The position numbers and the translations under genes are program-made. Below, piece after piece: positions 2,287-25,446 of a stretch of DNA of 29,676 nt (its first letter is position 1; every line of letters begins with the position of its first letter). The DNA is from Agathobacter sp. (lineage in GTDB: Bacteria > Bacillota > Clostridia > Lachnospirales > Lachnospiraceae): assembly GCA_963651635.1 (NCBI GenBank), contig CAVJQN010000063.1, positions 1 to 29,676 of the forward strand. Reading direction: 5' to 3'. The notes under the pieces were generated by a model. The model worked only from the letters and a program-made list of their open reading frames with translations. It did no database searches and was not told the DNA's origin.

Positions 2287-3477
2287 TTACAAACAGAGGT
2301 CCGGATTCGCCACGGCGAAGAATTCCACTCCGTCCTGCGTGATCACGAATGTATCCTCTATATTGTAACTGTGGTTTCTGGAGCTGTAGTACGGCACCTC
2401 CATGCAGAAGACCATACCTGGCTCGAGCGGACGCTTCTCGCCGGGAGCCAGATACGGAGCCTCCTCGGGCGAGCGGCTGCATCCCAGACTGTGTCCGTGA
2501 TGTCCGCGTATATATCCTTCTATGCCGCGCTCTGCTACCACGCGCTGCACCTCAAAGAACGCGTTGCACATAGGCTCGCCGGGGCCGAGGCATGCCTTTC
2601 CCGCCTCAAAGCCCTTGTAGAGCGTATCGTAGATCCTCTCGCGGTTGGCATTGGTCTTGCCGCCCACGGCAAATGTACGTGCGAGGTCTGCATTGTACGC
2701 ATTGACCTTCACACCGCCGTCCAGACGGATGATATCGCCTCTCTCGATGCGTCCCGTGCGCGGGATGCATGCCGGGGCGAAGTTCGCGCCCACGGTATGT
2801 GCCTTAAAGACATCCATGACCTCGTTGGACTGCGCCCAGCACTTCTGATTGTAGATCTGGAATACGTCCGCCTCGGTCATGCCCGGCACGATGGCTCTCG
2901 CCGCCTCCAGCATAGCCAGCTCAGTATAGTGGGCAGCCTTTCTGAGGTTTTCGATCTCCCACGGTGTCTTGATGACCCTCGCCTCGCGCATAGCCTCCGC
3001 GCAGTCCTTGATGTGATCCGCACCGAAGACCGACTCCAGATATGCATACGGCTTGTAGGGCAGATAGTTCGGCTCTACTCCGAGTACCGCCCTGTCCTTG
3101 TTCGGGATGACCTCGACTGCCATCTCATAGGTCTTGAGCGGGTTGTTGACGACCTCTTTTTTCTCGCCCGGCTTCGTATAGTCCTCTATATATACCCACG
3201 TCGGATATGTATGTATCTCCACATACTCCGGATCTACGGACAGCGCCGCATTCTGCTTCTCAAATTCCGTGCAGAATACATACGCCTTTCCGTCCTTTGT
3301 GACTACAGCTGTCGAGAGTCCCAGTCTGCCTGTCTGATAGGGGATGGCTGTCGCAAAGCCCGTAGCATAAAAGACAGAATCGGGAGATGTCAGCAGCAGC
3401 GCATCTATCCCGGTACGCTCCATCTGCGGAACCAGTCTGTCAAGAAATTCCTTTTGATTGCGTTTCATCTCGTACAT
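2287..3477 (-). CDS. M24B Xaa-Pro peptidase/prolidase-like metallohydrolase (creatinase-N domain plus pita-bread domain)
   Basis: ARVIKTPWEI, LDGG...YNADLART, GHHGHSLG, MEVPYY, IEDT; all five metal ligands D,D,H,E,E present. Confidence 0.9.
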   Translation of the reverse strand: MYEMKRNQKEFLDRLVPQMERTGIDALLLTSPDSVFYATGFATAIPYQTGRLGLSTAVVTKDGKAYVFCTEFEKQNAALSVDPEYVEIHTYPTWVYIEDYTKPGEKKEVVNNPLKTYEMAVEVIPNKDRAVLGVEPNYLPYKPYAYLESVFGADHIKDCAEAMREARVIKTPWEIENLRKAAHYTELAMLEAARAIVPGMTEADVFQIYNQKCWAQSNEVMDVFKAHTVGANFAPACIPRTGRIERGDIIRLDGGVKVNAYNADLARTFAVGGKTNANRERIYDTLYKGFEAGKACLGPGEPMCNAFFEVQRVVAERGIEGYIRGHHGHSLGCSRSPEEAPYLAPGEKRPLEPGMVFCMEVPYYSSRNHSYNIEDTFVITQDGVEFFAVANPDLCL

Positions 3478-3494
3478 CCTCCTTGATGCATTGA

Positions 3495-4676
3495 TCAGAA
3501 CATGCTCTTATATATCTTCTCTATGCTCTCGAGCGCAGTCGTTATCGTGCTGCGCGGGCATGCGATATTCATGCGCATGAAGCCCGAACCCTCGGGTGCT
3601 CCGAACCAGAAGCCCTTGTCCAGCGCCACCTTTGCCTTGTTCGTGAAGAAATCGTCCAGATCCGCGTCGGACAGTCCCATCTCGCGGCAGTCCAGCCATA
3701 CCAGGAATGTTCCCTCCGGCTGTATCAGGCGGATATGCGGCATCCTCGCCTGCAGCTCCTTGTCCAGATATGCGATATTGCCCTCCAGATATGTAAGGAG
3801 CTGTCCCAGATATTCCTCTCCGCTGTGATATGCCGCTATGCAGCCGTCCAGACCGAAGGTGGATACGAGCGCGCACTTGTTCGTATTGAACTGTGCCGCC
3901 ATACGGCTGCGCAGGTGCTCGTTTTCAGCGATGACTGCCGCCGTACGCAGACCCGCCAGATTGAAGGTCTTGCTGGGTGCTACCGCCGTAACCGTGATGC
4001 TGCTTATCTCCTCGGACAGTGAGGCGATCGGTGTATGAGTGTGTCCCGAATATACGATATCGCCGTGGATCTCGTCACTGAATATCAGGACATTGTGACG
4101 CAGACATATCTCGCCTATCCGGCGAAGCTCATCCGGCGTAAATACGCGCCCGCCCGGGTTGTGCGGGTTGCACAGCAGCATGAGCTTTACGTCGGGTGCC
4201 GCTGCCGCCTCATCCAGCGCGTCAAAATCTATCTCATAGTGTCCGTCCTTCATCACCAGCGGGCAGTTCTTGACCACGCGGTCATTGTCCTCGATGGCAT
4301 TGGTGAAGGGGTAGTAAACCGGGCGCTGTATGAGTACCTTGTCTCCGGGCTTGGTCAGGCACTGTACAGCCGCATACATGGCGGGGATGACGCTTGCCAC
4401 GTACAGCACGGACGAGGGATCCACATTCCAGCCGTGACGGCGCTTCTGCCATCCTGCCACCTCATTGTAGAAATCCCGGTGAGCATACGGATATCCGAAT
4501 ATTCCCAGCTCTATCCTCTCCTTGAGTGCATCTATGACGGGCTGCGGTGCACGGAAATCCATATCTGCCACCCACATGGGCAGCGCATCCGGGTTGCCTA
4601 TACGCGCACCTACATTATCCCATTTCGAGCTGCGTGTATTTCTGCGCTCGATGATTTCATCAAAATCGTACTGCAT
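3495..4676 (-). CDS. patB: PatB/MalY family PLP-dependent C-S lyase (cystathionine beta-lyase-like)
   Basis: LPMWVADMDF, GIFGY, LCNPHNPGGRVF, SDEIHGD, APSKTFNLAGL (PLP Lys), FMRMNIACP. Confidence 0.92.
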   Translation of the reverse strand: MQYDFDEIIERRNTRSSKWDNVGARIGNPDALPMWVADMDFRAPQPVIDALKERIELGIFGYPYAHRDFYNEVAGWQKRRHGWNVDPSSVLYVASVIPAMYAAVQCLTKPGDKVLIQRPVYYPFTNAIEDNDRVVKNCPLVMKDGHYEIDFDALDEAAAAPDVKLMLLCNPHNPGGRVFTPDELRRIGEICLRHNVLIFSDEIHGDIVYSGHTHTPIASLSEEISSITVTAVAPSKTFNLAGLRTAAVIAENEHLRSRMAAQFNTNKCALVSTFGLDGCIAAYHSGEEYLGQLLTYLEGNIAYLDKELQARMPHIRLIQPEGTFLVWLDCREMGLSDADLDDFFTNKAKVALDKGFWFGAPEGSGFMRMNIACPRSTITTALESIEKIYKSMF

Positions 4677-4718
4677 ATTGATCTCCTTATGTTTGCAAAA
4701 GGTCTTTTGCCGCCGGCA

Positions 4719-5687
4719 TCATTTCAGCCCGTTGATTGCGCGCACGTTGTGGCAGGCCACGAAGTGCTTGGGCAGTACCTCCTCTATCTGAGGATCATCC
4801 TTGAAGCAGATATCCGTAGCATACGGGCATCTCGGTGCAAAGCGGCATCCCGGCTTGGGATTGATGGGAGAGGATACCTCTCCGCGGATGAGCTCGCGCT
4901 CCTTGCGCTCTCCCACTACGGGCAGCGGTATCGCCGCCAGCAGAGCCTTCGTATAGGGATGGAGCGTATTGTCAAACAGCTCGTCCGCCTCGCTCTTTTC
5001 TGCCAGCTTGCCCAGATACATGACCAGTATGTCGTCGGATATATGCTTCACGACCGACAGGTCATGCGTGATAAACATATATGTCAGCTTCATATCCTCC
5101 TGCAGATCCTGCATCAGGTTCAGCACCTGTGCCTGGATGGAGACATCCAGCGCGGATACGGGCTCGTCGCATACGATGAACTTGGGCTTGAGCGCCAGTG
5201 CGCGTGCGATGCCGATACGCTGACGGCGTCCGCCGTCCAGCTCGTGGGGATATGAATATGTCAGACGCTCCGCCAGACCCACGCGATCCATGAGCCTTCT
5301 GACCATGGCATCCAGCTCGTCCGTGGTCTTGCATACCTTGTGTATGCGCAGCGGCTCCGCTATGGAGTCGTATACGCTCATACGCGGATCCAGCGATGAG
5401 AAGGGATCCTGAAAGATCAGCTGCATATCGCGGCGTGTCTCAAAGAAGCGCTTCGTGCCGCGGATATATGTGACATCCTCGCCGTCGAACATGATCTTGC
5501 CGTCGGTGACGTCGAGCAGGTTCAGTATCGTACGTCCGAGAGTGGACTTGCCGCAGCCGGACTCTCCGACCACTCCCAGCGTCTTGCTTCTCTCTATGTA
5601 GAAGGAGAGACCGTCTACCGCGTGGAGCTTGCCCTTGGGCGTATTGAAATATTTTTTCAGATCCGTAACTTCCAGAATCTTATCCAT
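4719..5687 (-). CDS. Opp/Dpp-type ABC transporter ATP-binding subunit (OppF/DppF-like)
   Basis: Walker [14 protein letters not shown], variant signature [18 protein letters not shown]-terminal oligo_HPY with Cys motif. Confidence 0.95.
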   Translation of the reverse strand: MDKILEVTDLKKYFNTPKGKLHAVDGLSFYIERSKTLGVVGESGCGKSTLGRTILNLLDVTDGKIMFDGEDVTYIRGTKRFFETRRDMQLIFQDPFSSLDPRMSVYDSIAEPLRIHKVCKTTDELDAMVRRLMDRVGLAERLTYSYPHELDGGRRQRIGIARALALKPKFIVCDEPVSALDVSIQAQVLNLMQDLQEDMKLTYMFITHDLSVVKHISDDILVMYLGKLAEKSEADELFDNTLHPYTKALLAAIPLPVVGERKERELIRGEVSSPINPKPGCRFAPRCPYATDICFKDDPQIEEVLPKHFVACHNVRAINGLK

Positions 5688-6663
5688 CTATCTCACCTGC
5701 TTTCTCTTCGTAGCCGTGGCAGCGCACGAAATGTCCCGGAGCGATCTCACGGTTCGTCGGCTCCTCCTGACGGCAGCGCTCCGTGGCATACGGGCATCGC
5801 GGGTTGAACTTGCAGCCTTTCGGCAGCTCGCACGGATTCGGTGTCAGTCCCTCGATAGGTGTCAGACGATGCACCTTTGTCTTCAAATTCGGGATGGAGG
5901 CGAAGAGCCCCTTGGTATACGGATGGCTCGTATGATTGTAGATATCCTCCAGCGTGCCGGACTCCACTATCTGACCGGCGTACATTACGGCGACCTTGTC
6001 GCATATCTCTGCTACTACTCCCAGATCGTGAGTGATCATGATCATGGAGGTGTTGAATTTCTCCTTGAGCTTGCTCATCATCGTCAGAACCTGCGCCTGG
6101 ATCGTCACGTCCAGAGCGGTCGTCGGCTCGTCTGCGATCAGCAGCGACGGGTTGCAGGCAAGAGCAATCGCTATCACGACCCTCTGCTTCATGCCGCCCG
6201 AGAACTGGTGCGGATACTCTCCGAAGCGCTCCGCGGGTATACCGACGATCTCCAGCATCTCCGCCGCTCTCTTGTGTGCGTCCGCACGGGAAAAGCCTTT
6301 TTCATGCAGCTTTACGACCTCTGCTATCTGATCCCCGACCGGGATGATCGGGTTGAGCGCCGTCATCGGATCCTGAAAGATCATGGTGATCTTCTCACCG
6401 CGTATCTTTCTCATCTCCGCCTCGCTCAGTGTCAGCAGATTGCGATCCTCAAATATGATCTCACCGTCTGTGATCCTGCCGGGAGGTGCAGGCACCAGCC
6501 GCATGATTCCGAGAGCCGTCGTTGTCTTTCCTGCACCCGTCTCGCCCACGAGACCCAGAGTTTCACCCTTCTCCAGCGAGAGGTCGACCCCGTTCACCGC
6601 CTCTACGGTACCGTCGTCGGTGACGAAGTTGATGCGAAGATCATGAATACTTAAAAAACTCAT
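5680..6663 (-). CDS. Opp/Dpp-type ABC transporter ATP-binding subunit (OppD/DppD-like)
   Basis: GETGAGKTT, FSGGMKQR, ADEPTTALD, HPYT, GCKFNPRC; 8-nt overlap with the next gene. Confidence 0.95.
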   Translation of the reverse strand: MSFLSIHDLRINFVTDDGTVEAVNGVDLSLEKGETLGLVGETGAGKTTTALGIMRLVPAPPGRITDGEIIFEDRNLLTLSEAEMRKIRGEKITMIFQDPMTALNPIIPVGDQIAEVVKLHEKGFSRADAHKRAAEMLEIVGIPAERFGEYPHQFSGGMKQRVVIAIALACNPSLLIADEPTTALDVTIQAQVLTMMSKLKEKFNTSMIMITHDLGVVAEICDKVAVMYAGQIVESGTLEDIYNHTSHPYTKGLFASIPNLKTKVHRLTPIEGLTPNPCELPKGCKFNPRCPYATERCRQEEPTNREIAPGHFVRCHGYEEKAGEIDG

Positions 6664-6673
6664 GCTGCTCCTC

Positions 6674-7549
6674 CTATTTCAGTCTGGGATCCAGTGCGTC
6701 GCGCAGACCATCGCCTATCAGGTTCATGCAGACGATGCTGGTGACTATAACCAGTCCCGGGAATATCACAAACGTAGGGCTGTCATACAGATAGTTCCTC
6801 GCCTCGGAGAGTATGCTTCCCCACTCCGGTGTGGGCGGGTTGACTCCGAGACCCAGAAAGCTGAGGCTGGAGCTTGCCATGATGCCGCTTCCTATGCTCA
6901 GCGATGCCTGCACTATGATGGGAGCCAGTGAGTTCGGAAGCAGGTGGCTGACGATGATCTTCCACGATTTCTCGCCGAGCGCTCTCGATGCCTCGATATA
7001 CTCCGACTCCTTGATCGTCATGACCGATGCCCTGATGACACGTGCAAATCTCGGTATATTGGTGATGCCGACTGCTATCATGCAGTTGTAGATGCCGCTT
7101 CCCAGCGTCGCGGATATCGCGATAGCCAGCAGCATACTCGGTATCGACTGGAATACATCCAGCACTCGCATCACGTACATATCGAACTTGCCGCCCTTGT
7201 ATGCGGATACGGCTCCGATGGAGCAGCCGAAGAGCATGCCTATGCCCACGGCGATGAAGCCGACTGCCAGAGATATACGTCCTCCGTATACTATTCTGGC
7301 GAAGAGGTCTCTTCCGAGGTGATCCGTGCCCAGCCAGTACTGACTCGACGGACCTGCGAGGATATTGCTCAGATCACTGGAGCTGATGTCATGAACCGTG
7401 ATGAAATCCGCAAATATCGCGGAGAGCACCAGCAGTACCATGATCACTGCCGAGATCACCGCCGCCTTGTTCTTCATATAGCGGTGAAGTATCTGACGCA
7501 TATTGGAATTTTTCTTCCTGCGCTTCTCTGATGACTGATTCTGTGCCAT
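6674..7549 (-). CDS. Opp/Dpp-type ABC transporter permease (OppC/DppC-like)
   Basis: LGTDHLGRD, EYIEASRALGE (EAA loop), HLLPN, LSFLGLG, GDGLRDALDP. Confidence 0.95.
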   Translation of the reverse strand: MAQNQSSEKRRKKNSNMRQILHRYMKNKAAVISAVIMVLLVLSAIFADFITVHDISSSDLSNILAGPSSQYWLGTDHLGRDLFARIVYGGRISLAVGFIAVGIGMLFGCSIGAVSAYKGGKFDMYVMRVLDVFQSIPSMLLAIAISATLGSGIYNCMIAVGITNIPRFARVIRASVMTIKESEYIEASRALGEKSWKIIVSHLLPNSLAPIIVQASLSIGSGIMASSSLSFLGLGVNPPTPEWGSILSEARNYLYDSPTFVIFPGLVIVTSIVCMNLIGDGLRDALDPRLK

Positions 7550-7551
7550 GC

Positions 7552-8523
7552 TTACACCCCCTCTTTCTGAGCAGCACTCTTGTGAGCACGCTTGGGAGTC
7601 TGATACTGTGACTTGATACGCGGATCGATATACGCATATACGATATCAACCAGCAGATTCACTACGCCGTATGCCAGCGCTATCAAAAGAACACCTCCGC
7701 GCACTATCGGGTAGTCACGCGCCTTGACTGCATCGACGAGATAGCGTCCCAGACCCGGGATAGAGAAGATCGACTCTGTCAGTATCGAGCCTCCGAGGCT
7801 GATTCCGATACGTATTCCTATGATAGTCACGACGGGGATCAGCGCGTTTTTCAAAGCGTGATGCCAGATGACGGTTCTCTCTGACGCGCCCTTGGCACGT
7901 GCGGTTCTGATATAGTCCTGACGGATGACCTCCAGCATGCTGGATCTGGTGGATCTCATGATCTCACCGGTCACGCTCATACCGAGACATACCATCGGCA
8001 GCACCCAGTACTTGGGACCGTAGAAGCCGGATGCCGGGAGCCATTTCAGATTAACCGCAAATATGATGATGAGCATGAAGCCCGACCAGAAGTTGGGCAT
8101 CGATACAAAGACGAGCGATACCAGCCTCGCCACGGTATCGATCAGCTTGTTCTGGTGCGTCGCCGAGACTATGCCCAGCGGTATCGCCACCACGACCGCT
8201 ACCATCGTGCTCAAAAGAGCGAGCTTCATAGTAGTCGGGAAGCGTTCCAGCAGATCCTGCGATACGGAGCGTCCGTTCAGATAGGACGTACCGAAATCGC
8301 CGTGACATACATTCCAGATGTATTTGCCCAGCTGCACGATATACGGATCGTTCAGACCGAGAGACTCACGGCATGCCTCCAGCTCCTCCTGAGTCGCGGT
8401 ATCACCCAGTATGGTGATGGCGGGATCGCCCGGCGTGAAATAAAGCAATGTGAATATCAGCACCGCTACGCCCAGCAGCACCGGGATCAGCAGCAGTATC
8501 CTGCGGAGAATATATTTGATCAT
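7552..8523 (-). CDS. Opp/Dpp-type ABC transporter permease (OppB/DppB-like)
   Basis: Start moved to MIKYILRR (8523, AGGAG RBS upstream) from the ORF-track 8598; PGDPA, QDYIRTARAKG, HALKN, RDYP, DPRI. Confidence 0.93.
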   Translation of the reverse strand: MIKYILRRILLLIPVLLGVAVLIFTLLYFTPGDPAITILGDTATQEELEACRESLGLNDPYIVQLGKYIWNVCHGDFGTSYLNGRSVSQDLLERFPTTMKLALLSTMVAVVVAIPLGIVSATHQNKLIDTVARLVSLVFVSMPNFWSGFMLIIIFAVNLKWLPASGFYGPKYWVLPMVCLGMSVTGEIMRSTRSSMLEVIRQDYIRTARAKGASERTVIWHHALKNALIPVVTIIGIRIGISLGGSILTESIFSIPGLGRYLVDAVKARDYPIVRGGVLLIALAYGVVNLLVDIVYAYIDPRIKSQYQTPKRAHKSAAQKEGV

Positions 8524-8565
8524 CGCGGATTTCTTTCTCCTTCCTATGTACCTTCCTTGATTAGC

Positions 8566-8594
8566 CTGCCGGAGCCTTATATCCTCTCCGGCAG
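8566..8594 (-). other. Intergenic stem-loop between SBP gene and permease
   Basis: CTGCCGGAG (8566-8574) / CTCCGGCAG (8586-8594) perfect 9-bp inverted repeat, no U tract. Confidence 0.55.
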
Positions 8595-8621
8595 ACATGT
8601 GTATCGCTCTAATATCTCAGA

Positions 8622-10247
8622 TTACTTTGCGACCCTGATAGTGCTGTAATCAAGTATCTGCACTCCGGGTGTGATGGTGATGCCTGTCATCTTCTTGCTG
8701 TGAACAAACAGGATACTGGGGAATGCCATCGTGATCTCATAGTGTGCATCCCACAGATACTGCTGCAGTGTCGCATAGGTCTCGCGGCGCTCCTCGGGTG
8801 TCTTTGCCGACAGTCCCTTCTGGAGCATCTCGTCGATATACGGATCGTTCATATGAAGCGCGCCTACCCAGGTTGAAGACCATTTCTTGAGCACATCTCC
8901 CGCCGTTCCGGAAGCCGGTGTGGTTGATGCACTGGAGAACTCGTTGACGCCTGCGTTGTTGCGCTCTACCATGGAGCCGACCTCCATCTGCTCGATGGTC
9001 GCGTTGATGCCTACCTGCTTCCAGTACTCCTGAGCCAGTGTCACGCACTGTACCAGATTGCCGCTATGACCGAGGCAGACATTGACATCCAGACCGTTCT
9101 CATATCCCGCCTCCTTGAGGAGCTCCTTCGCACGCTCCGGGTTGTACTCGTAGGGGCCGCACTTGTAGAAGTCCTGTACCTCGCTGGAGAAGATGCCGCT
9201 GCAAGGTGCCGCGTAGTCGCCGTATACCGCCTTTACTATCGCCGGGATATCAAGAGATATGCAGAGCGCCTCACGCACGCGGGGATCCTTGAACTTCTCA
9301 CATGCCGAGTTCATCTGCAGTCCTGTATGGGACCATCCGATGAAGTTCAGGCATGTCAGATCGGGGTTGTTCTGCAGTCTGCTGAAATCATTGGGCACGA
9401 TGTCAAATGACGCATCTACACCGCCGCTCTCTACCTCAGCCGCGCGCACGCTCGACTCCGTAACTACGCGGAAGATCAGATTCTTGTATGCGGGCATGCG
9501 ATCCTTGTTCCAGTACTCGTCATTGCGGTGAAGCGTGACCGAGTCGCCCTGTACCCACTTGTCAAATATGAACATGCCGGTTCCTATCGGATTCTGAGCA
9601 TACGCATCGCCGCCTATCTTCTCATGTACGGACTTGCAGACGATATTGCCTCTGGTGGAGGCGATATACGCGAGCGCTGCCGAGAAGGGATAGTCAAAGC
9701 CTATCTGTACCGTGGTCTCGTCGATAGCCTTGGTCGTCTCCTCGTTGAACGGATTCATGAACGCCTTGTTGTCGGCACTGTTCATGCCCGTGATGAAGCT
9801 GTATGCCACGTCCTCTGCCGTCATCTTCTCACCGTTGGTGAAGTAGACGTCATCGCGCAGATGGAAGAGCATCGTCGTATCCGAGTTCCACTCCCATGAG
9901 GTCGCGAGATTGGGCAGAAATTCATCATTTTCATAGTCACGGAGCACGAGCTTGTCATATATCGCGTCCATGATATTGAAATCGTCCTGCATCTTGTTGC
10001 TGGTAGGATCAAGTCCCAGCGGGTTGAACTGTATAGCTATCGTGACTGTATCCTTGCAGTCCTGCGCCGCTGCGGTCGTCTCTGTCCCGGACGCCGTCGT
10101 ATCGGCAGCTCCTGCCTGTGTGCCTGTCGTGCCTGTCGCTCCTGTCGCTCCTGTCGCGCCGCCGCCGTTGCCGCAGGCTGTCGTGCCCATGAGCATCAGT
10201 GCTGCAAGCGCCGCACAGGCGTATCTCTTTGCTGTCATCTTTTTCAT
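8622..10247 (-). CDS. Family-5 (Opp/Dpp/Nik) ABC solute-binding lipoprotein, copy 2
   Basis: Lipobox TTAC, G/A/T-rich tether, LATSWE...FHLRDDVYFTNGEKMTAEDVAYS family-5 signature, PIGTG, VREAL, YNPERAKELLKEAG. Confidence 0.95.
   Translation of the reverse strand: MKKMTAKRYACAALAALMLMGTTACGNGGGATGATGATGTTGTQAGAADTTASGTETTAAAQDCKDTVTIAIQFNPLGLDPTSNKMQDDFNIMDAIYDKLVLRDYENDEFLPNLATSWEWNSDTTMLFHLRDDVYFTNGEKMTAEDVAYSFITGMNSADNKAFMNPFNEETTKAIDETTVQIGFDYPFSAALAYIASTRGNIVCKSVHEKIGGDAYAQNPIGTGMFIFDKWVQGDSVTLHRNDEYWNKDRMPAYKNLIFRVVTESSVRAAEVESGGVDASFDIVPNDFSRLQNNPDLTCLNFIGWSHTGLQMNSACEKFKDPRVREALCISLDIPAIVKAVYGDYAAPCSGIFSSEVQDFYKCGPYEYNPERAKELLKEAGYENGLDVNVCLGHSGNLVQCVTLAQEYWKQVGINATIEQMEVGSMVERNNAGVNEFSSASTTPASGTAGDVLKKWSSTWVGALHMNDPYIDEMLQKGLSAKTPEERRETYATLQQYLWDAHYEITMAFPSILFVHSKKMTGITITPGVQILDYSTIRVAK
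10123..10158. repeat. 4 x 9-bp tandem repeat (CCTGTCGyk) encoding the (A/T)TG linker of the SBP
   Basis: CCTGTCGTG CCTGTCGCT CCTGTCGCT CCTGTCGCG. Confidence 0.8.
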
Positions 10248-10275
10248 CTTTCTGCTCCTGATGTAAACTCCCCGT

Positions 10276-10308
10276 GTCCTGCGAACCGGACCGGCCGATC
10301 CGCAGGAC
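10276..10308 (-). other. Intergenic stem-loop between the two SBP genes
   Basis: Minus strand GTCCTGCG-GATCGG-ccggt-CCGGTT-CGCAGGAC, about 14-bp stem with G-U pairs, no U tract. Confidence 0.6.
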
Positions 10309-10340
10309 GTATGATTAGGGTTTGTACTGTATCTTTTTGA

Positions 10341-11966: not shown

Positions 11967-12052
11967 GTTTATGCTCCTTCCTTACTGTTTTCCTTATTGC
12001 TGTATCCTTGTGCTTTGTAAGCAGCGTCGGCAGTGTACTTGCAGCCGTGCCG

Positions 12053-13375
12053 TCATGACCTCGGGCTTTGAGCGCTCCCCGGTGCCGGCATACTGTCGAA
12101 CTGCTCCGGTATCCCGCAGTGCATGGACTCGAACAGCTCACGTATAGTCCCTGCAAACGGCTTGAATCCCGGATCCTCCGGCTTCTGCCTTAAAAACTCC
12201 ACCGCATATGCCGTATACATCAGTATCCCGTAGGGCATAGCCGCTTCATCTATCTCGAACTCGGCTGTATGCACCGGCGCCGTGATGCCCTGCTTCTCGT
12301 TGCGTATGCCCACCTTGGCGGTCACGCTGGGATAGAATGTACTCAGCACTCCGTAGCTCTCGGAGCCCATCGCCTTGCTTCTGGGTATGATATGCTCAGA
12401 CCCGATCAGGTCTCCCACGACCTTCCGTCCGAACTGTGCCAGCGGCTCCGAGCAGATCGTAGGCAGATAGCTCTCGGCAAATGCCGGATACTCTGCCGTG
12501 CATCCGTACCGTGCGCAGCATCCCTCCACGCAGTCCTTCAGATATCTCTCAAAGGCGCGTCCCGCCTCCAGATTGAAAAATCTGCATGTGCCTCCGAATG
12601 TCAGCTCCGCCGCTATGACATTGCTGACCGTCCCCGCATGGACGAAGCTGATGCAGTGCGTGAGAGGATCAAACGGCGATGTATGCTGCATCGCAAAGCC
12701 CCGCATATCCGACGCGATAGCCGTGAAGCAGTCGATCGGGTTCACTGCGCGATCCGGGCGTGATGCGTGTCCGTCGCGCCCCCGCAGCCTGATGGTATAT
12801 TCAAATACCGCCGCATTGGTCTCGCCGCCCTGTATGGCGACATCCCCTACGGGAAGGTCGTTGACCACATGGTTGGCCCAGCAGCCGTCTATCGCTATGC
12901 CGTGAGTCTGGAGATATTCCATCACGTAGTAGATGCAGCGTGCTCCCTCCTCGCCTCTCTCAAACAGCAGCAGTACGCTGCCCTCCAGCTCGTCCCTGTG
13001 CTCCTGCAGCACCTTTCCCGCCGCAAGAAGCATAGCTGTATGCGAGTCATGTCCGCACATATGCGCCACACCCTGGTTGGTGCTGACGCATCTCTTGGCC
13101 TGTCCGCCTCCGTTGACCGTGCTCTCCGTGATCGCCAGCGCGTCGCAGTCCGCTCTCAGCAGGACAGTCCTGCCCTCCCTCACGCCGTCGATCCGCGCCA
13201 GTACGCCGCCGTTGGGTATCACCGTATATCCGATGCCGTATCCGTCCAGCTGACTGCATATATAGCTGACAGTCCCGCGCTCATATCCCGACAGCTCCGG
13301 ATGCTCGTGCAGATAGCGTCTGTGGCGTGTCGCGTCCTGCCCGGCGGTCTTTGCCGCCTCCCATATGTCAAACAT
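12053..13375 (-). CDS. M20D family amidohydrolase (aminoacylase/hippuricase-like)
   Basis: RRYLHEHPELS, LRADCDAL, HMCGHDSH, GEEG, GHASRP, MGSES, PVH...F.IDE. Confidence 0.92.
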   Translation of the reverse strand: MFDIWEAAKTAGQDATRHRRYLHEHPELSGYERGTVSYICSQLDGYGIGYTVIPNGGVLARIDGVREGRTVLLRADCDALAITESTVNGGGQAKRCVSTNQGVAHMCGHDSHTAMLLAAGKVLQEHRDELEGSVLLLFERGEEGARCIYYVMEYLQTHGIAIDGCWANHVVNDLPVGDVAIQGGETNAAVFEYTIRLRGRDGHASRPDRAVNPIDCFTAIASDMRGFAMQHTSPFDPLTHCISFVHAGTVSNVIAAELTFGGTCRFFNLEAGRAFERYLKDCVEGCCARYGCTAEYPAFAESYLPTICSEPLAQFGRKVVGDLIGSEHIIPRSKAMGSESYGVLSTFYPSVTAKVGIRNEKQGITAPVHTAEFEIDEAAMPYGILMYTAYAVEFLRQKPEDPGFKPFAGTIRELFESMHCGIPEQFDSMPAPGSAQSPRS

Positions 13376-14486
13376 ATCGTCCGTCCTCCGTCAGCTGCGG
13401 TCTGATGACCTGATGCTCGCGTCCTTCCCACAGCTCCTGTGAAAATACCGCGAGATGCTGCGAGCTGAACAGTGCCGGAAGACCTCCCGTATGCAGGAAT
13501 ATGACCGAAGCGCCCTTGGGTATCTCGCCTGACTGCGTCAGCCTCAGCACTGCCGCAAAGCCCTTGCCCGTATAGCATGGATCCACGAACAGTCCCTCGG
13601 TGCGCGCCAGTCTCTCGATCACCGCAAAGGTCTCCGGATCCGGCGCGTCATATGCCGTTCCGGCACATTCGGTCAGCAGCAGCTCCAGCTCGTGTGCCTG
13701 CGCCGTGATGCCCAACTCGTACATGGCGCTCGTCTCGTTGATGTAGTCGGCCATGTTCTGCTTGTATACTGCTCCGTGAGGGCTCACGCACGCGCCTATC
13801 ACGCGAAACGGCGCCTTGAAATATCTGCTGCCCAGCCAGAGCCCCGCAAATGTGCCGTTCGAGCCGCACGGGCATATCAGATACTGTGCCGTCGTGCCCA
13901 TCTCCTCCAGCTGCTTCATGATCTCCTTTACTGCAAAGAAGTATCCCATGCAGCCCAGCGGAGTGCTGCCGCCCGAGGGCATCTCGTATACCTTTTCGCC
14001 GCGCGCCGCGTACTCTGCGATGACGCGGTCGGCTGCCGCCCTGCGGAGCTTGACCGTCTCCGCCTTGACCTCATCCGGGCTCAGTCCCCGTCCGTCCAGA
14101 CAGGATGTATCGAGGAAGCGCACATCACAGTCCAGTATCGCGTCCAGCAGCAGATTGCCGCTGAGCTTCTCGGGAGCCCTGCCGTCGCCTACCGTAGCGA
14201 TGATGATCGACTTCATGCCGTACTTGCATGCGACAGCAGCCATCTGACGTCCGTGATTGGTCTGTACTCCGCCGAAGGTCAGCATCGCCGTGCAGCCCTG
14301 TGACTTCGCCTCCTGCACCAGATACTGGAGTTTGCGTATCTTGTTGCCGGAGAAGCCCAAACCTGTCAGGTCGTCCCGCTTCATCAGCAGATCGCAGCCC
14401 AGCTCGCGGCTGAGGTTGTCGAGGCGGTGCAGCGGTGTAGGAAAGCAGCCGCAGCCGTCCATCTTTTGAATCGACTCAATATGCAT
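13368..14486 (-). CDS. D-cysteine desulfhydrase / ACC deaminase family fold-type II PLP enzyme (not ACC deaminase type)
   Basis: PTPL, KRDDLTG, SGNKIRKL (PLP Lys), GGVQTNH, GSNGT, DPCYTGK, HTGG. Confidence 0.88.
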   Translation of the reverse strand: MHIESIQKMDGCGCFPTPLHRLDNLSRELGCDLLMKRDDLTGLGFSGNKIRKLQYLVQEAKSQGCTAMLTFGGVQTNHGRQMAAVACKYGMKSIIIATVGDGRAPEKLSGNLLLDAILDCDVRFLDTSCLDGRGLSPDEVKAETVKLRRAAADRVIAEYAARGEKVYEMPSGGSTPLGCMGYFFAVKEIMKQLEEMGTTAQYLICPCGSNGTFAGLWLGSRYFKAPFRVIGACVSPHGAVYKQNMADYINETSAMYELGITAQAHELELLLTECAGTAYDAPDPETFAVIERLARTEGLFVDPCYTGKGFAAVLRLTQSGEIPKGASVIFLHTGGLPALFSSQHLAVFSQELWEGREHQVIRPQLTEDGRYV

Positions 14487-14510
14487 ATCCCGTCTCCTTC
14501 AATGCAGCGC

Positions 14511-15404
14511 CTATCTTGCCTTTTTCTCCAGCTCGTCGCGATACTCGATGATCGCCTTGTAGCTCTCCGGACGTACCGCAAATTTCTTGCCGTAGCCCTG
14601 CTCCGTGATCCACTGCATCTTCTTGAGCGTAGCCTGGGTCATGATATCGTTCTCGCCCATGCTCTCCAGCGTAGCGAGTACCTCCTCCATCTCGTGTCCG
14701 AGGCGCTCGGAATGTGTCGCCGCAGTGCACAGGAAGTAGTTGATGGCATCCTCAAAGGTCATCTCCTTAGTGAGTATGCTCTTGAGTGCGCCTATCGTCT
14801 GGTCGGTGATGCCGTAGCGCTCTGCCGCAAATACAGTCTCCGTCAGCAGTGCTATAAAGCCCTTGAACAGCACGCTCTTGATCATCTTCATGGCGGATGC
14901 CGCGCCGATCTGCTCGGAGAGTACATGGAAGTTCATCCCGCAGTCCTCGGCTATCTTCGCCGCCTCTGCCGCTCTCCTGCCGCACAGATATACGGGCGTT
15001 TTAGTCCTGTTCGCCGGAACGGATGCCATGACCGCCGCCTCTACGAAGTCGCCGGCGGCGCTCTTAAGTGCCTTGTCTATCTCCTCCTTCGTAGCGGGCG
15101 AGGTGGAGTTCATATCTATATATATCTGACCGTCTCTAAGCAGCGGTGCTATCTGCTTTGCTATCGGCAGCGCCGAGTTCGCGCTCGTCAGGCACAGGAT
15201 CGTGTCCGCCTGCGCGAAAAGTCCCTCCATGGAGGTCAGCAGCGTCACCTTGTTTGCAGCCGCTCTCTCCCTTATTTCGGCGCCGCGCGGCGTATCCTGC
15301 GATGCCACCATGTCAAAGGCATACAGCTCTGCCGAGCCCTCCTTGATATCGGCTGTGAGATAATATGCAGCCTCTCCGAAGCCGATCATGCCTATCTTAT
15401 GCAT
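14511..15404 (-). CDS. NAD(P)-dependent beta-hydroxyacid dehydrogenase family oxidoreductase (DUF1932-type C-terminus)
   Basis: Start moved to MHKIGMIGFGEAA (15404, GGAGG RBS); Rossmann GxGxxA, DMNSTSP.TK, AAVM, GAASAMKMIKS...KG, H..R...EMEE. Confidence 0.85.
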   Translation of the reverse strand: MHKIGMIGFGEAAYYLTADIKEGSAELYAFDMVASQDTPRGAEIRERAAANKVTLLTSMEGLFAQADTILCLTSANSALPIAKQIAPLLRDGQIYIDMNSTSPATKEEIDKALKSAAGDFVEAAVMASVPANRTKTPVYLCGRRAAEAAKIAEDCGMNFHVLSEQIGAASAMKMIKSVLFKGFIALLTETVFAAERYGITDQTIGALKSILTKEMTFEDAINYFLCTAATHSERLGHEMEEVLATLESMGENDIMTQATLKKMQWITEQGYGKKFAVRPESYKAIIEYRDELEKKAR

Positions 15405-15405
15405 G

Positions 15406-16044
15406 CTACATATCCTCCATTCCGAGTTTCTTCGCAAAGCCCATCAGCTCTACGGTCGTCTTGCCCTCAGCGAGCTGCGGTCCGAGCGTCGTCTCCTCGA
15501 AGTTGAACTTCTTTCTGGACTTCTCCAGCACTTCCTCTGCTCTGTCCTTTTTGATGATGACTACGCCGTCGCCGTCGGCGGTGACGATATCACCTGTCTC
15601 TACGCGTATCCCTCCGCACATCACAGGTGCTCCGATATCCCCGAGTATCTCCTTGGTCGTACCGTTCGGACATACCGCCCTGCTGTATACCGGGAAGTTC
15701 ATGTCAATCAGAGCATTTCTGTCGCGGCATGCACCGTCGATGACTACGCCGACGATGCCCCTCTTGCGGCAGCTGATGGCAAACATCTCGCCGAAGCACC
15801 CTGCCTCGACATAGCCCGCGCAATCGATGATAAGTACATCGCCGGGATGCGCCAGACATATCGCCTTGTGGATAGTCAGGTTGTCACACGGATGGCATCT
15901 GACAGTCAGAGCCTTGCCGACCATCTCGAACTTCCTGTCCAGTCCCTGGATCGCTGAGGTCATAGCACCTACGCGCTCGTTGGAGTCACATACATTGCCT
16001 GTCGGGATCCCTCTGAATCCCTCCACTATCTCCTCGTACTGCAA
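15406..16044 (-). CDS. RraA-family / HMG-CHA aldolase-like protein 1
   Basis: TTG start with AGAGGTG RBS; G.ALTV, DNL, GDVLIID, E-X20-RD motif, GDIVTADGDGVVII. Confidence 0.88.
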   Translation of the reverse strand: MQYEEIVEGFRGIPTGNVCDSNERVGAMTSAIQGLDRKFEMVGKALTVRCHPCDNLTIHKAICLAHPGDVLIIDCAGYVEAGCFGEMFAISCRKRGIVGVVIDGACRDRNALIDMNFPVYSRAVCPNGTTKEILGDIGAPVMCGGIRVETGDIVTADGDGVVIIKKDRAEEVLEKSRKKFNFEETTLGPQLAEGKTTVELMGFAKKLGMEDM

Positions 16045-16130
16045 TTCCTGTCACCTCTTTCTTTTAGTAAGCATCCCTGACGCCTGCGCCCGCTCTGTCA
16101 CGGATGTACTGCTGCATCACATATTGTTCA

Positions 16131-16176
16131 TGTTGTTTTCGCTACATTTGCGATACTATATGAAATGATAGTTACA
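16131..16176. promoter_or_regulatory. Two operator-like 16-bp boxes at the leftward promoter
   Basis: TGTTG-TTTTCG-CTACA (16131-16146) and TGAAA-TGATAG-TTACA (16161-16176). Confidence 0.55.
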
Positions 16177-16181
16177 GTCAA
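16153..16181 (-). promoter_or_regulatory. sigma-A-like promoter of the leftward 12-gene operon
   Basis: Minus strand TTGACT (16181-16176), 17 bp, TAGTAT (16158-16153). Confidence 0.65.
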
Positions 16182-16277
16182 TGGTCACATATCCATACAT
16201 TTACAGTCTGTATTCTGGTGAAAACTACTAACAAACCGCTATTTTATTGTATTTTTTGATATTTTATTAACAATGAC

Positions 16278-16306
16278 TTGACAGATTTACCCCGTCTTCA
16301 TATATT
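16278..16306 (+). promoter_or_regulatory. sigma-A-like promoter of the rightward aldolase pair
   Basis: TTGACA (16278-16283), 17 bp, TATATT (16301-16306), with an AT-rich UP-like tract upstream. Confidence 0.75.
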
Positions 16307-16350
16307 GAAGCAAATGCTACATCATCATTTCACATGTTGTTGTAACTACA
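16306..16350. promoter_or_regulatory. Two operator-like 16-bp boxes at the rightward promoter
   Basis: TGAAG-CAAATG-CTACA (16306-16321) and TGTTG-TTGTAA-CTACA (16335-16350). Confidence 0.55.
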
Positions 16351-16474
16351 CAAAGTTGTCCCGTCCTCTCATCGTGCCGCGCCCGGCTGCGATGTCTCCA
16401 TAAGGGAGATGGATCGGGATATGTCAGGTCACAGCATTGATCAAAAATCAAATCATTAAGGAGAGAAACACATC

Positions 16475-17137
16475 ATGACACAGCAGGAATATGAGCGTTT
16501 TTATGCACTGTCCACCAGCAATATCTCAGATGCACTCGATGCACTCGGCATGAAGGGATCTACATATGGTGTACGTCCCGTATATGAGGGCTGCCCCAAG
16601 CTCGTCGGCGAGGCGCTGACAGTCAAGATCGGTCCCACGGGCGAGACACCCATGCCCTCCACGCATCTGTGCTCAGAGGCTATCGCTATGGCTAAGCCCG
16701 GCGATGTCATCGTAGTAGACAACGGCGGCGATACGGCAACATCCGCATGGGGCGGTCTGCTTGCCAATGCAGCCAAGACCAAGGGCGTCAACGGCGTCAT
16801 CGTAGACGGCGCAGTAAGAGATGTAGACGACTTCTACAATGCAAAGTTCCCGGTATTCTCACGTACAGCCGTAGTTCGTACATCACGCGGACGCATCATG
16901 GTATATGAGACCAACGGCATGGTTCAGTTCGCAGGCGTACAGGTACGTCCCGGCGATATCGTCATCGGCGACCGCAGCGGCGTCACCATCGTACCGAAGG
17001 AGCGCTATCTTGAGGTGCTGAACAAGGCAGAGGAGCTTGAAGGAAAGGAGTCCAAGATGATGGACGAGGTCGGCGCAGGCGGCGATATGCTCGAGGTTGA
17101 CGCAAAGTACGACTATGTTCACATGCTGAAGAAATAA
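16475..17137 (+). CDS. RraA-family / HMG-CHA aldolase-like protein 2
   Basis: ISDALD, GEALTV, GDVIVVDNGG, WGG-X20-RD-VD-D motif, PGDIVIGDRSGV; AAGGAG RBS. Confidence 0.9.
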   Translation: MTQQEYERFYALSTSNISDALDALGMKGSTYGVRPVYEGCPKLVGEALTVKIGPTGETPMPSTHLCSEAIAMAKPGDVIVVDNGGDTATSAWGGLLANAAKTKGVNGVIVDGAVRDVDDFYNAKFPVFSRTAVVRTSRGRIMVYETNGMVQFAGVQVRPGDIVIGDRSGVTIVPKERYLEVLNKAEELEGKESKMMDEVGAGGDMLEVDAKYDYVHMLKK

Positions 17138-17138
17138 T

Positions 17139-17807
17139 ATGGCTGAATATAAAGAGATATCAAAAGAGATCATAGATGAGTTTTTGAAGTTCGACACGCC
17201 TGCGGTATCAGATGCGATGGACCGTCTCGGACTGAAGGCCGGACTGCTGGGCATCCATGCCGTAGTCCCGGGTACACGTATGTGCGGACCTGCATTTACG
17301 GTGCACTACGTCCCCTGCGGGATCCACAAGGACAATGTCGGAGACTTCATAGATGATGTAAAGCCGGGTCAGGTGGTCGTCATCGACAACGGCGGGCGGC
17401 TGGACTGCACGGTATGGGGCGATATCATGTCGCTGTATGCCTCCAAGAACGGTATCGCAGGCACTCTGATCGACGGCGTATGCCGTGATGTACCCGTGAT
17501 CCGCGAGCTGCACTATCCTATATTTACCAAGAGCACCTATATGGTCACCGGCAAGGACCGCGTCTATGTGGATCATATCAACGAGCCGGTCAATATCAGC
17601 AATGTGCAGGTGCTGCCGGGTGATCTGATACTCGCCGACGACACCGGCGCTGTGGTCATACCGCAGACAAGAGCCGAGGAGATCCTCGCCGTCGCCAAGG
17701 AGATAGAGGAGAAGGAAGAGGCTATCCGTCAGCGCGTGCTCGCCGGAAGCCGCCTCAAGGACGCGCGCCGCGAGCTGGGCTATCACCAGCTCCAGACCAG
17801 ACGCTGA
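17139..17807 (+). CDS. RraA-family / HMG-CHA aldolase-like protein 3
   Basis: VSDAMD, GPAFTV, VIDNGG, WGD-X20-RD motif, PGDLILADDTG; starts 1 nt after the previous stop. Confidence 0.9.
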   Translation: MAEYKEISKEIIDEFLKFDTPAVSDAMDRLGLKAGLLGIHAVVPGTRMCGPAFTVHYVPCGIHKDNVGDFIDDVKPGQVVVIDNGGRLDCTVWGDIMSLYASKNGIAGTLIDGVCRDVPVIRELHYPIFTKSTYMVTGKDRVYVDHINEPVNISNVQVLPGDLILADDTGAVVIPQTRAEEILAVAKEIEEKEEAIRQRVLAGSRLKDARRELGYHQLQTRR

Positions 17808-17808
17808 C

Positions 17809-17837
17809 TTGCGGGATTGTAAAAAGAATACTATGAT
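17809..17837 (+). promoter_or_regulatory. Promoter of the RpiR regulator
   Basis: TTGCGG (17809-17814), 17 bp, TATGAT (17832-17837). Confidence 0.5.
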
Positions 17838-17841
17838 ATCA

Positions 17842-17901
17842 GGGTCTCAAAGTCAAAAAGTCGTTCGTGCTTGCACGATAAGACGTTTGACCTTGAGACC
17901 C
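17842..17901. repeat. 60-bp imperfect palindrome / long hairpin upstream of the RpiR gene
   Basis: GGGTCTCAA-A-GTCAAA...TCGTGC-TT-GCACGA...TTTGAC-C-TTGAGACCC. Confidence 0.75.
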
Positions 17902-17939
17902 GCAAAACATAAAATACCTTCAAACAGGCAGGGATATAC

Positions 17940-18794
17940 ATGGAAAATCTGGAAGAGCGCATCAAGAGCAGCAATCTGACGCAGGCACACCGCAGGATAG
18001 CGGAGTTCTGTCTGCAAAACAAGCAGGCGCTGCCCCTGCTGTCCACAGCCGAGATAGCACGTCAGACCGGGGTCAGCGATGTGTCGGTCATCCGGTTCGT
18101 CCGTTCGCTGGGATACTCCGGCTTCGTGGAGTTCAAGCAGGCTATACAGGCGGAGATAGCTAATACCTCTGCGGATACGCTCTCGCCCAGCCCGATAGTC
18201 AGCTATGTATCAAAAAAGAACAATCCCTGTGACAATACAGAGTCAGAGGACATCAAGACAGCCTATCTCCGTATAGTGGGTGATATCTTCAATCGCAATT
18301 CTCCCAAGATATTTGAGGCGGCTGCCAAGATGATACTCGGAAGCAGGAACAGGTACATCCTCGGTACGCGTTTCCGTCATGCCTCGGCGGAGATATGTGC
18401 AAATCTGCTGAAGCTGACTACGCCGAACATCCTGCTGCTGCCGGCTGCCGACTACTCCGCATTTCAATCGGCGATGGACTTCACGCATGACGACTGTCTG
18501 ATATGGTTCTGCTTCGGACGATATACGAATTATGAGAAGCAGATGCTCCAGTTCATCCGCCGCAGCGGGATCAGTCTGATAGTGATAACCGATCAGCGCG
18601 CGTCCGAGATAGCACTGGAGGCAGACCTGCTGATACAGTCCATAGGGCGTACCGTGCTTCCCTTCTACTCATCCACGGCGAACTGCATCATATCGGAGCA
18701 GATAGCCAATGCGGTACTTTCAATGGAATGGATCGGTACGGAGAAGCGTCTGCGCGACTTCGAGCACGTGCTGAGCACTATGGAGACCGACTGA
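17940..18794 (+). CDS. MurR/RpiR family transcriptional regulator (HTH_6 + SIS)
   Basis: LT...RRIAEF, STAEIARQTGVSDVSVIRFVRSLGYSGF.EFK; SIS-like C-terminus (ILG, IVITD..S..A..AD). Confidence 0.93.
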   Translation: MENLEERIKSSNLTQAHRRIAEFCLQNKQALPLLSTAEIARQTGVSDVSVIRFVRSLGYSGFVEFKQAIQAEIANTSADTLSPSPIVSYVSKKNNPCDNTESEDIKTAYLRIVGDIFNRNSPKIFEAAAKMILGSRNRYILGTRFRHASAEICANLLKLTTPNILLLPAADYSAFQSAMDFTHDDCLIWFCFGRYTNYEKQMLQFIRRSGISLIVITDQRASEIALEADLLIQSIGRTVLPFYSSTANCIISEQIANAVLSMEWIGTEKRLRDFEHVLSTMETD

Positions 18795-22630: not shown

Positions 22631-22719
22631 CGCCGTCCCCTGTCACATCTGTACCTGCGGGGTCCGAAAGCCTCTCCGGAGATTCATCGCAAGCCCGACA
22701 TGTGATTCAGATGTCCTTC

Positions 22720-22748
22720 AGTATATACACAAAACGCCATAATGGCAA
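22720..22748 (-). promoter_or_regulatory. Promoter of the AraC regulator
   Basis: Minus strand TTGCCA (22748-22743), 17 bp, TATACT (22725-22720). Confidence 0.65.
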
Positions 22749-22895
22749 ATTCACATTTCTTGTCATCATGCATATTATTATGCGTTTTTGACAAAAATCA
22801 TGCAGTTGTGAAAGTTTCATTTATTTATTTTGTCGTGCGGCAATGATAAGAAATGAATGCAACAAATTTTGTTCCGATTTTTGAAGGAGGAATAT

Positions 22896-24461: not shown

Positions 24462-24506
24462 CAAATACGCTTAAAATGCAAGATAAGCTAAGAGGAAACT
24501 GCCTAA

Positions 24507-25436: not shown

Positions 25437-25446
25437 GGAGGTCAAT

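Follow-up and report, generated by a model that had tools for sequence, protein, structure and literature searches.

A 29,676-nt stretch of DNA from Agathobacter sp. (family Lachnospiraceae; contig CAVJQN010000063.1), hereafter the window, carries between positions 2287 and 18794 a real, partly conserved and undescribed catabolic cluster built from known folds. Its fifteen genes encode an Opp-type ATP-binding cassette (ABC) importer with two solute-binding proteins (SBPs), an M20D amidohydrolase, an M24B metallopeptidase, two pyridoxal-phosphate (PLP) enzymes of the PatB and D-cysteine desulfhydrase (DcyD) types, a DUF1932 dehydrogenase, three RraA-fold proteins (RraA1, RraA2 and RraA3) and an RpiR-family regulator. 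We give a probability of about 0.45 to reading it as a layered catabolic cluster: an N-acylated or peptide-bound amino-acid conjugate, most likely an L-/D-cysteine thioether, would give up a small carboxylic acid through the work of Opp, M20D, PatB and the DcyD-like enzyme, and DUF1932 and the three RraA proteins would then convert that acid to pyruvate. Gene content, synteny, layered distribution, residue sets and a shared palindrome were observed directly in the loci; the identity of the substrate we infer. The most valuable part is the pair of uncharacterised RraA subfamilies together with DUF1932 as a reusable lower pathway, which lies beyond the frame of the original prediction, made from this DNA alone, of a self-contained fifteen-gene unit.

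Gene content and layered conservation

All 15 open reading frames (ORFs) are present with zero internal stops, twelve on the minus strand (RraA1 to M24B) and, after a 430-nt gap, RraA2, RraA3 and RpiR on the plus strand. Spacing ranges from -32 to 93 nt within the 12-ORF left arm and amounts to 1 nt between RraA2 and RraA3 and 132 nt between RraA3 and RpiR. The GC content of the cluster (0.54–0.60) matches that of the genome (0.545). The predicted fifteen tightly packed genes around a divergent promoter thus held in coordinates and ORF integrity, and the predicted families agreed with family searches. DUF1932 adjoins RraA1, but the supposed overlap becomes a 1-nt gap: its start most likely lies at 15404, because the closest homologs share the resulting length of 297 aa. 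Among the cluster proteins, only PatB and M20D passed the cut-off of an NCBIfam enzyme family; the DcyD-like, M24, SBP and RraA proteins score under every named NCBIfam family. The features are as follows.

2287-3477, minus: M24B-type metallopeptidase (M24 and Creatinase_N; nearest to the uncharacterised PRK14575/14576), accessory and not kept with the cluster
3495-4676, minus: PatB-family PLP C-S (beta-)lyase (TIGR04350, PLP-site residues)
4719-8598, minus: whole Opp/Dpp-type ABC importer (OppFDCB; family matches)
4719-5687 and 5680-6663, minus: the two Opp ATPases
6674-7549 and 7552-8598, minus: the two Opp permeases
8622-10247 and 10341-11966, minus: two tandem family-5 solute-binding lipoproteins (SBP_bac_5), 81% identical
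12053-13375, minus: M20D amidohydrolase, N-acyl-amino-acid/peptide hydrolase type (TIGR01891, metal residues)
13368-14486, minus: D-cysteine-desulfhydrase-type PLP enzyme (PALP) of a distinct clade (residues; TIGR01275 best match)
14511-15404, minus: DUF1932 plus NAD_binding_2 protein, beta-hydroxyacid-dehydrogenase fold, 297 aa, core gene
15406-16044, minus: RraA1, LigK/PRK06201-side paralog with an HMG/CHA-aldolase-like active site (alignment to 3NOJ)
16045-16474: divergent promoter region with three candidate operators, TGTWG-N6-CWACA, and a promoter-like site
16475-17137, plus: RraA2, G-X20-R-D-X2-D subfamily, invariant H64, T136 and R138
17139-17807, plus: RraA3, D-X20-R-D subfamily, M-x-TGK and C-terminal Y-x-x-LQ motifs
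17940-18794, plus: RpiR-family regulator (HTH_6 and SIS), orthologs 31–56% in L002, L003, L004 and L084

A profile built from 50 DUF1932 proteins yielded 356 confirmed stretches in genomes and 454 in metagenomes, and the best 80 of each were kept. Six of these 160 loci are close (49–76%), five of them independent, as L083 and L084 encode identical proteins. The core of RpiR, DUF1932 dehydrogenase and three to four RraA-fold paralogs was found in a Lachnospiraceae metagenome-assembled genome (MAG), in Murdochiella and in a sediment contig. The MAG locus (L002) holds counterparts of 13 of the 15 genes in nearly identical order (RpiR, four RraA, DUF1932, DcyD, M20D, Opp and PatB), with a single SBP and a fourth RraA paralog; a gene-neighbourhood search, the check that had been proposed, therefore did find co-occurrence elsewhere. 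L082 shares the left arm of L002 (DUF1932, DcyD, M20D, Opp, PatB), again with one SBP, on a contig that starts inside DUF1932. Murdochiella (L003) combines RpiR, four RraA, DUF1932, DcyD and PatB with an APC amino-acid permease in place of Opp and is without M20D, while L083/L084 have RpiR, four RraA, DUF1932 and a tripartite ATP-independent periplasmic (TRAP) transporter, with DcyD, PatB and M20D absent from the 20 kb examined. L004 comprises RpiR, DUF1932 and a divalent anion:sodium symporter (DASS), and there an unrelated class II pyruvate aldolase of the HpcH type occupies the place of RraA.

The additions follow the importer. DcyD and PatB occur together in 4/4 amino-acid-importing versions (window, L002, L003, L082), and M20D is confined to the Opp-containing ones, with none at L003 or L084. 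M24B, for which the L002 and L003 genomes gave no match at E≤1e-10, and the second SBP are local extras of the window version. The set is hence conserved but layered, and this layered architecture is well supported; the idea of one fixed, self-contained unit does not survive the missing M24B, the single SBP of L002 and L082, or the TRAP-fed version that carries no PLP or amide enzymes. In the simplest reading, a carboxylate importer would go with the bare core, an amino-acid importer would add the two PLP lyases and a peptide importer would add the amidohydrolase. In L003, two identical short transposase-like ORFs (7226–7510 and 18215–18499) flank the Murdochiella cluster, a hint of a composite transposon.

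The cluster is rare. DUF1932 had no match in 60 relatives, six congeners among them, and the DcyD-like clade none in 400 family genomes or in 101 genomes around G460. RraA3 matched in 3/399 class and 3/400 family genomes and RraA2 in 3/400 phylum genomes, and no RraA3 relative was found in the viral contigs searched. A search for sequencing runs listed none, which has no bearing on expression.

Such a patchwork could also mean that one promoter serves two modules of separate function and with no common substrate: an RraA/DUF1932 cassette for organic acids and a generic cassette that scavenges cysteine conjugates. The RraA set is found recombined with a wide range of unrelated partners, this lineage has gained M24B and a non-orthologous RraA1, and in the closest congener the flanking genes uppP and eno sit on separate contigs, neither adjoining this cluster. 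We nevertheless hold this to be highly unlikely: in the window, L002 and L082, DcyD comes right after DUF1932, and in L003 only a permease intervenes; the DcyD and PatB orthologs (60–70% identity) form clades of their own; and 11 of the 45 closest DUF1932 matches appear, on indirect grounds, to share a genome with a DcyD or RraA2 match, which also suggests that more such loci exist.

The cluster is likely RpiR-regulated. The palindrome TGTWG-N6-CWACA lies at 16131, 16306 and 16335 in the divergent promoter of the window, the second copy beginning on the last base of a TTGACA-17-TATATT promoter-like site (16278–16306, plus strand). Allowing at most one mismatch, the promoters of the window, L002, L003, L084 and L004 contain 3, 2, 1, 3 and 0 copies, counts reached by 0, 1, 21, 0 and 500 of 500 shuffles, respectively; shuffle means for the first four were 0.04–0.09. 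RpiR may bind this candidate operator. Between RraA3 and RpiR (17823–17920) lies a 35-nt imperfect inverted repeat, which overlaps with promoter-like sites of either strand.

RraA subfamilies and DUF1932

The three RraA-fold proteins are pairwise ~31% identical. A quick maximum-likelihood tree of 68 proteins from the examined loci, with most Acidobacteria LigK-like rows left out, placed RraA3 and RraA2 in separate clades (support 99 and 89) apart from a LigK/PRK06201 side with RraA1. Compared with the HMG/CHA aldolase 3NOJ (HMG, 4-hydroxy-4-methyl-2-oxoglutarate; CHA, 4-carboxy-4-hydroxy-2-oxoadipate), RraA1 keeps 10 of 12 residues (R40, N71, H75, G101, R123, D124, G144, T145, K147 and E199 in 3NOJ numbering) and changes D102 to E and R195 to K; excerpts of PMC5065237 describe the roles of most of these active-site residues. 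The catalytic Arg123 and the metal ligands Asp124 and Glu199 of LigK correspond to R107, D108 and E183 of RraA1, and the equivalent R, D and E of the metal-enolate core also occur in RraA2 and RraA3. The substrate-pocket set of LigK (N71, H75 and G144-T145-x-K147) is present in RraA1 and replaced in RraA2 (T-S-R-G-R) and RraA3 (M-x-T-G-K-D-R), both of which are without the D-N motif. All three proteins fall under the family cut-offs, with RraA1, RraA2 and RraA3 scoring 148, 99 and 97 bits for TIGR02798 (cut-off 304.5) and 173, 104 and 96 bits for PRK09262 (cut-off 179).

RraA1 is likely an aldolase, judging by its residues. The label is safe for RraA1 only, because an RraA-fold 2-keto-3-deoxyglucarate dehydratase/decarboxylase, FlDet, exists (sections of PMC8563752), and calling the set a triple aldolase was an overstatement, the LigK residue set being found in RraA1 alone. 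RraA2 and RraA3 are, at the sequence level, two separate uncharacterised subfamilies with their own invariant residues. Their nearest structure is that of the uncharacterised PSPTO_3204 (PDB 3K4I), for RraA2 by model, and RraA3 falls in the PSPTO_3204 subfamily; an ESM Atlas search returned RraA clusters only. The window RraA1 itself looks like a lineage replacement, non-orthologous to the paralog of L002, L003 and L084, because it is closer to the RraA1-type genes of two other genomes (G257 and G293).

In 19/22 records, eight of them found with RraA2 as query, RraA2-clade and RraA3-clade genes lie no more than ~2 kb apart, and a third, LigK/PRK06201-side paralog occurs in 18/22 RraA3 records, both counts being favoured by ascertainment. 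An obligate RraA2-RraA3 heteromer was considered and weakened: three family genomes, G706, G710 and G604, have RraA3 without RraA2 in the examined stretch, and L180, L080, L106 and L108 show the reverse.

DUF1932 has the features of the beta-hydroxyacid dehydrogenase superfamily, namely a Rossmann fold, a helical domain and a catalytic lysine. D31 and K173 are invariant, K173 being present in 50/50 aligned sequences and aligned with the superfamily lysine; the Asn-Asn that follows it elsewhere is Lys-Ser here. Fold matches include 4EZB, 3QSG, 1I36, imine reductases and HIBADH. Imine reductases have Asp or Tyr where beta-hydroxyacid dehydrogenases have this lysine, so that imine reduction of a cyclic lanthionine derivative is disfavoured by the retained lysine, even though imine reductase structures rank high by fold.

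The neighbours of 154 distant DUF1932 genes indicate the chemistry. Markers of ring cleavage or the oxalomesaconate pathway accompany 96/154 and an RraA/LigK gene 75/154, although many of these loci come from related Acidobacteria and are not independent; among the 68 loci of at least 15 kb, 51 have a marker and 43 an RraA gene. Because distant DUF1932 genes adjoin such genes, oxo/hydroxy di- or tricarboxylate chemistry is implied. Hydroxy/oxo interconversion is favoured by analogy, because a D-2-hydroxyacid dehydrogenase holds the DUF1932 place beside the RraA trio of a congener, G002. In the distant loci (L005–L081 and L085–L161), DUF6282 genes (35/154) and PIG-L/GalB-like genes (31/154) are frequent within LigB/LigK-type clusters of Acidobacteria and Bacilli, which suggests that DUF1932, DUF6282 and PIG-L/GalB-like genes may serve unassigned lower-pathway steps of gallate/protocatechuate degradation.

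Beyond the close loci, RraA2 and RraA3 appear in varied company. In Burkholderia, Rhizobium and Ralstonia they accompany an aspartate-aminotransferase-like gene and an alpha/beta hydrolase, with an additional Glu/Leu/Phe/Val dehydrogenase in the Rhizobium RraA3 cluster. In Novosphingobium pNL1, Bradyrhizobium and Aminobacter they come after a LigB-type dioxygenase or after an amidohydrolase plus RidA. In five Bacillota genomes their partners are AcnX, a PreA-like protein and a transporter for carboxylates or of the LIV type, mostly together with LeuCD, a LeuB-like protein, UbiD or PrpD, and in G395 they stand beside a PIG-L/GalB-like protein. G604 has a minimal cluster of RraA3 and an aldolase-type RraA with an aspartate-aminotransferase-like gene and an SDF symporter. 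The G002 locus (C4, 57500–66100; L195/L196) reads LysR, RraA2, RraA3, the D-2-hydroxyacid dehydrogenase, RraA, a serine-dehydratase-alpha-like protein, DASS and a carboxylesterase; its dehydratase-like protein (485 aa) is highly divergent (PF03313, E 7e-9) and had no match in any other locus examined. These contexts would have in common a 2-oxo (di/tri)carboxylate, whether it arises by ring cleavage, oxidation, deamination or transamination.

From these contexts comes a bolder and rather doubtful proposal: RraA2 and RraA3 might represent two new RraA-fold enzyme classes, one a tautomerase or decarboxylase and the other an eliminase/hydratase, placed upstream of an aldolase of the LigK type. 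Together they would make up a lower pathway for 2-oxo acids that are unsaturated or 4-substituted, reused by ring-cleavage, tricarboxylate and amino-acid catabolism in different phyla and possibly including the missing 4-carboxy-2-hydroxypentadienoate hydratase; in this gut-type anaerobe it would finish the degradation of epimeric cysteine adducts of a carboxylic acid.

Two kinds of RraA loci were noted in passing. One is a recurring anaerobe cluster, RraA2-RraA1-RraA3 with two-subunit aconitase X, a PreA-like protein and GntR (L170, L168/L169, L190, L191, L192) and with LeuCD, LeuB-like, UbiD/UbiX, PrpD and tripartite tricarboxylate (TTT) or TRAP transporters as variable members, which looks like a separate undescribed tricarboxylate pathway. 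The other is a minimal operon of LysR, RraA3, a membrane protein and RraA1 (L199, 797–3360; L200, 9419–11941), whose ~395-aa membrane protein had zero Pfam or NCBIfam matches and is, we presume from its motif, YkvI-like.

Candidate substrates and route

PatB is, by score and residues, a bona fide member of its family: it reaches 472 bits for TIGR04350 (cut-off 340), has B. subtilis PatB (6QP3) as best PDB match and carries Y62, D201, K236 and R368 in alignment with it; L002, L003 and L082 hold an ortholog group of 60–66% identity. The DcyD-like enzyme has K49 and, at the positions of Glu295 and Leu322 of ACC deaminase (ACC, 1-aminocyclopropane-1-carboxylate), T306 and T333, the Thr/Thr pair of the desulfhydrase type. 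In sections of PMC4048297 these positions separate desulfhydrases from ACC deaminases, and an ACC deaminase identity is ruled out by Thr306/Thr333. The enzyme remains under all cut-offs (TIGR01275, 234 against 289 bits; CuyA, 230 against 450; XcbE, 224 against 450; DcyD, 188 against 429) and belongs to a clade of at least 66 listed proteins of 52–100% identity, a Hungatella member included. Both enzymes carry the residues expected of the L- and D-specific types, which agrees with the predicted beta-lyases for L- and D-centres. For the D-cysteine desulfhydrase of E. coli, DL-lanthionine, DL-allocystathionine and D-cystine are listed as substrates (PMC4048297), and for PatB, cleavage of L-cysteine conjugates is described (PMC11203769). 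A paired L-/D-lyase would fit an epimeric or two-centre cysteine thioether. Elsewhere in the genome that holds the cluster (G000, 1.68 Mb; contigs C10, C90, C133, C217, C122, C145 and C42), at least five more PatB-like genes lie beside transporters. There are also two more RraA genes, one next to an aconitase-like gene and the other within an Opp operon whose further members are, by motif, nitrilase-like and creatininase-like.

M20D scores 219 bits for TIGR01891 (cut-off 154), is 46–48% identical to its L002 and L082 counterparts and contains C107, H109, E143, H169 and H369, which we take to be metal ligands. D253, D264, H329, E360 and E374 of M24B presumably play the same part. M24B may not be a prolidase, because two substrate-binding His of Xaa-Pro aminopeptidases, whose positions we assume, appear to be missing. 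The importer genes are 61–76% identical to their L002/L082 counterparts, and the best families of the SBPs, GsiB/NikA, are weak and under cut-off.

Joined to the core, these genes suggest a route. Opp would import a blocked amino-acid conjugate, from which M20D, going by its family and its co-occurrence with Opp, would strip the N-acyl or peptide group. PatB on the L side and DcyD on the D side, whose family chemistry is known, would then beta-eliminate pyruvate and NH3 and free a thiol-bearing acid. DUF1932 would interconvert hydroxy acid and oxo acid with NAD(P). RraA3, aided by RraA2, might next use a metal-bound 2-oxo-acid enolate for leaving-group elimination, hydration or decarboxylation, the least certain step, and RraA1, with its aldolase residues, would cleave a 4-hydroxy-2-oxo acid to pyruvate.

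One candidate, following the example of a meso-lanthionine-like thioether in the original prediction, is meso-lanthionine, allocystathionine or D/L-cystine, free or in peptides and cut at both centres by PatB and DcyD. The task of RraA and DUF1932 would then be a deaminated derivative or the condensation products of pyruvate. DL-lanthionine is a reported substrate of both enzyme families (PMC4048297 and PMC11203769), and the two lyases travel together in every amino-acid-importing version. Yet they would yield only pyruvate, NH3 and H2S; meso-lanthionine needs PatB and DcyD only and leaves DUF1932 and RraA, the most conserved genes, unexplained and without a substrate, and the TRAP-only (L084) and DASS plus HpcH (L004) versions are not accounted for. 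We regard such a substrate as quite unlikely.

A sulfur-free acidic or hydroxylated amino acid is another candidate, be it 4-methylene- or 4-hydroxy-4-methylglutamate or both epimers of a beta-hydroxy amino acid. Deamination or dehydration would be the task of the PLP enzymes, hydration or tautomerisation of the 2-oxo acid that of RraA3/RraA2, and two pyruvates would come from RraA1. The HMG-aldolase site of RraA1 agrees with this, as do the aspartate-aminotransferase-like neighbours of RraA3 in G604, Burkholderia, Rhizobium and Ralstonia, the RraA2/RraA3 pairs behind amidohydrolase and RidA in ring-cleavage clusters, and the listing of 4-carboxy-2-hydroxypentadienoate hydratase as not identified in S. 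lignivorans SYK-6 (PMC12673573, Table 2). The window, however, has no aminotransferase, and its PatB reaches 472 bits as a C-S lyase, far above its score as any aminotransferase. PatB and DcyD are also not known to act on 4-substituted glutamates, and this candidate appears unlikely.

Several observations weigh against the cysteine-thioether pathway as well. Most RraA2/RraA3 contexts (ring cleavage, AcnX/LeuCD/LeuB/UbiD, aminotransferase) are without a sulfur enzyme, and sulfur is therefore no inherent part of the core. With at least five other PatB-like genes in its genome, the organism readily collects them. Neither the SBPs nor the L084 TRAP receptor have a close PDB relative with a known ligand. 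DUF1932 could instead reduce the aldolase product, as beta-hydroxyacid dehydrogenases often reduce an aldolase's aldehyde product. The layering is drawn from five independent close loci alone, and the genes absent from the 20 kb of L084 could sit elsewhere in its genome. On the regulatory side, the palindrome was derived from the sequences on which it was tested, making the test partly circular; the L004 promoter has no copy at up to one mismatch, and over the whole window 11/100 shuffles reach the observed count.

Relation to known systems

The original prediction did not recognise the gene set as a described pathway, and we found no description of it, or of the RraA2/RraA3 subfamilies, in the open-access literature searched. 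[quoted passage not shown] It shares the RraA fold and the 10/12 residues of RraA1, and its clusters include DUF1932 relatives. The present cluster differs in RraA proteins under the family cut-offs, two extra paralogs of other subfamilies, a supply from amino-acid enzymes and the lack of ring-cleavage genes. That lack, noted by the original prediction for the window, extends to the 73%-complete genome, where the queries used found no LigB, LigC, LigJ, GalB or PobA homologs; other contigs do hold a DUF6282 gene and a PrpF/OMA-tautomerase-like one. FlDet, in sections of PMC8563752, combines the RraA fold with non-aldol chemistry on 2-oxo acids; it comes from an alginate context and is likened here by fold, with no orthology claimed.

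Among amino-acid pathways, the cysteine S-conjugate systems of B. subtilis (snaA-tcyJKLMN-cmo-sndA and the yxe S-(2-succino)cysteine operon) use ABC import of the S-conjugate, an M20D N-acyl-cysteine hydrolase, an acetyltransferase and a flavin monooxygenase, and are without RraA, DUF1932 and DcyD. The ABC importer and M20D are thus common to both, whereas the acetyltransferase and flavin monooxygenase are absent from the cluster. Ectoine catabolism (doeAB/eut) likewise has a single operon for an M24 hydrolase, an M20 deacylase and a PLP enzyme of fold II; here, M24 is not conserved, and the class III aminotransferase and cyclodeaminase are absent. The ectoine pathway was rejected on scores (DoeA, 67 bits against a cut-off of 575; DoeB2, 163 against 550). 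The glucarate/galactarate system garPLR, with its carboxylate transporter, class II pyruvate aldolase and beta-hydroxyacid dehydrogenase, is mirrored by L004 (DASS, HpcH-type aldolase and DUF1932), although DUF1932 is distant from tartronate semialdehyde reductase (E 3e-9 by profile) and there is no sugar-acid dehydratase.

Next to the cluster, the window contains a second divergent unit (20417–29441), in which SBP-oppBCDF and a PRK12394 metallo-hydrolase face a large AraC regulator. The hydrolase scores 448 bits (cut-off 442), and its likely start is a later Met near 28290. This unit was not seen adjoining the first cluster in related loci.

The cluster offers a small, testable gene set for DUF1932, the PSPTO_3204-type RraA subfamily and its RraA2 partner, and the series of versions (TRAP only; permease with PLP lyases; Opp with M20D) shows, for each form of the substrate, the enzyme that acts on it. 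RraA-like proteins are mostly annotated by default as RNase regulators or HMG aldolases, and a new activity, if true, would correct many annotations. If the sulfur reading is true, anaerobes would have an added route for degrading damaged or modified cysteine with release of H2S.

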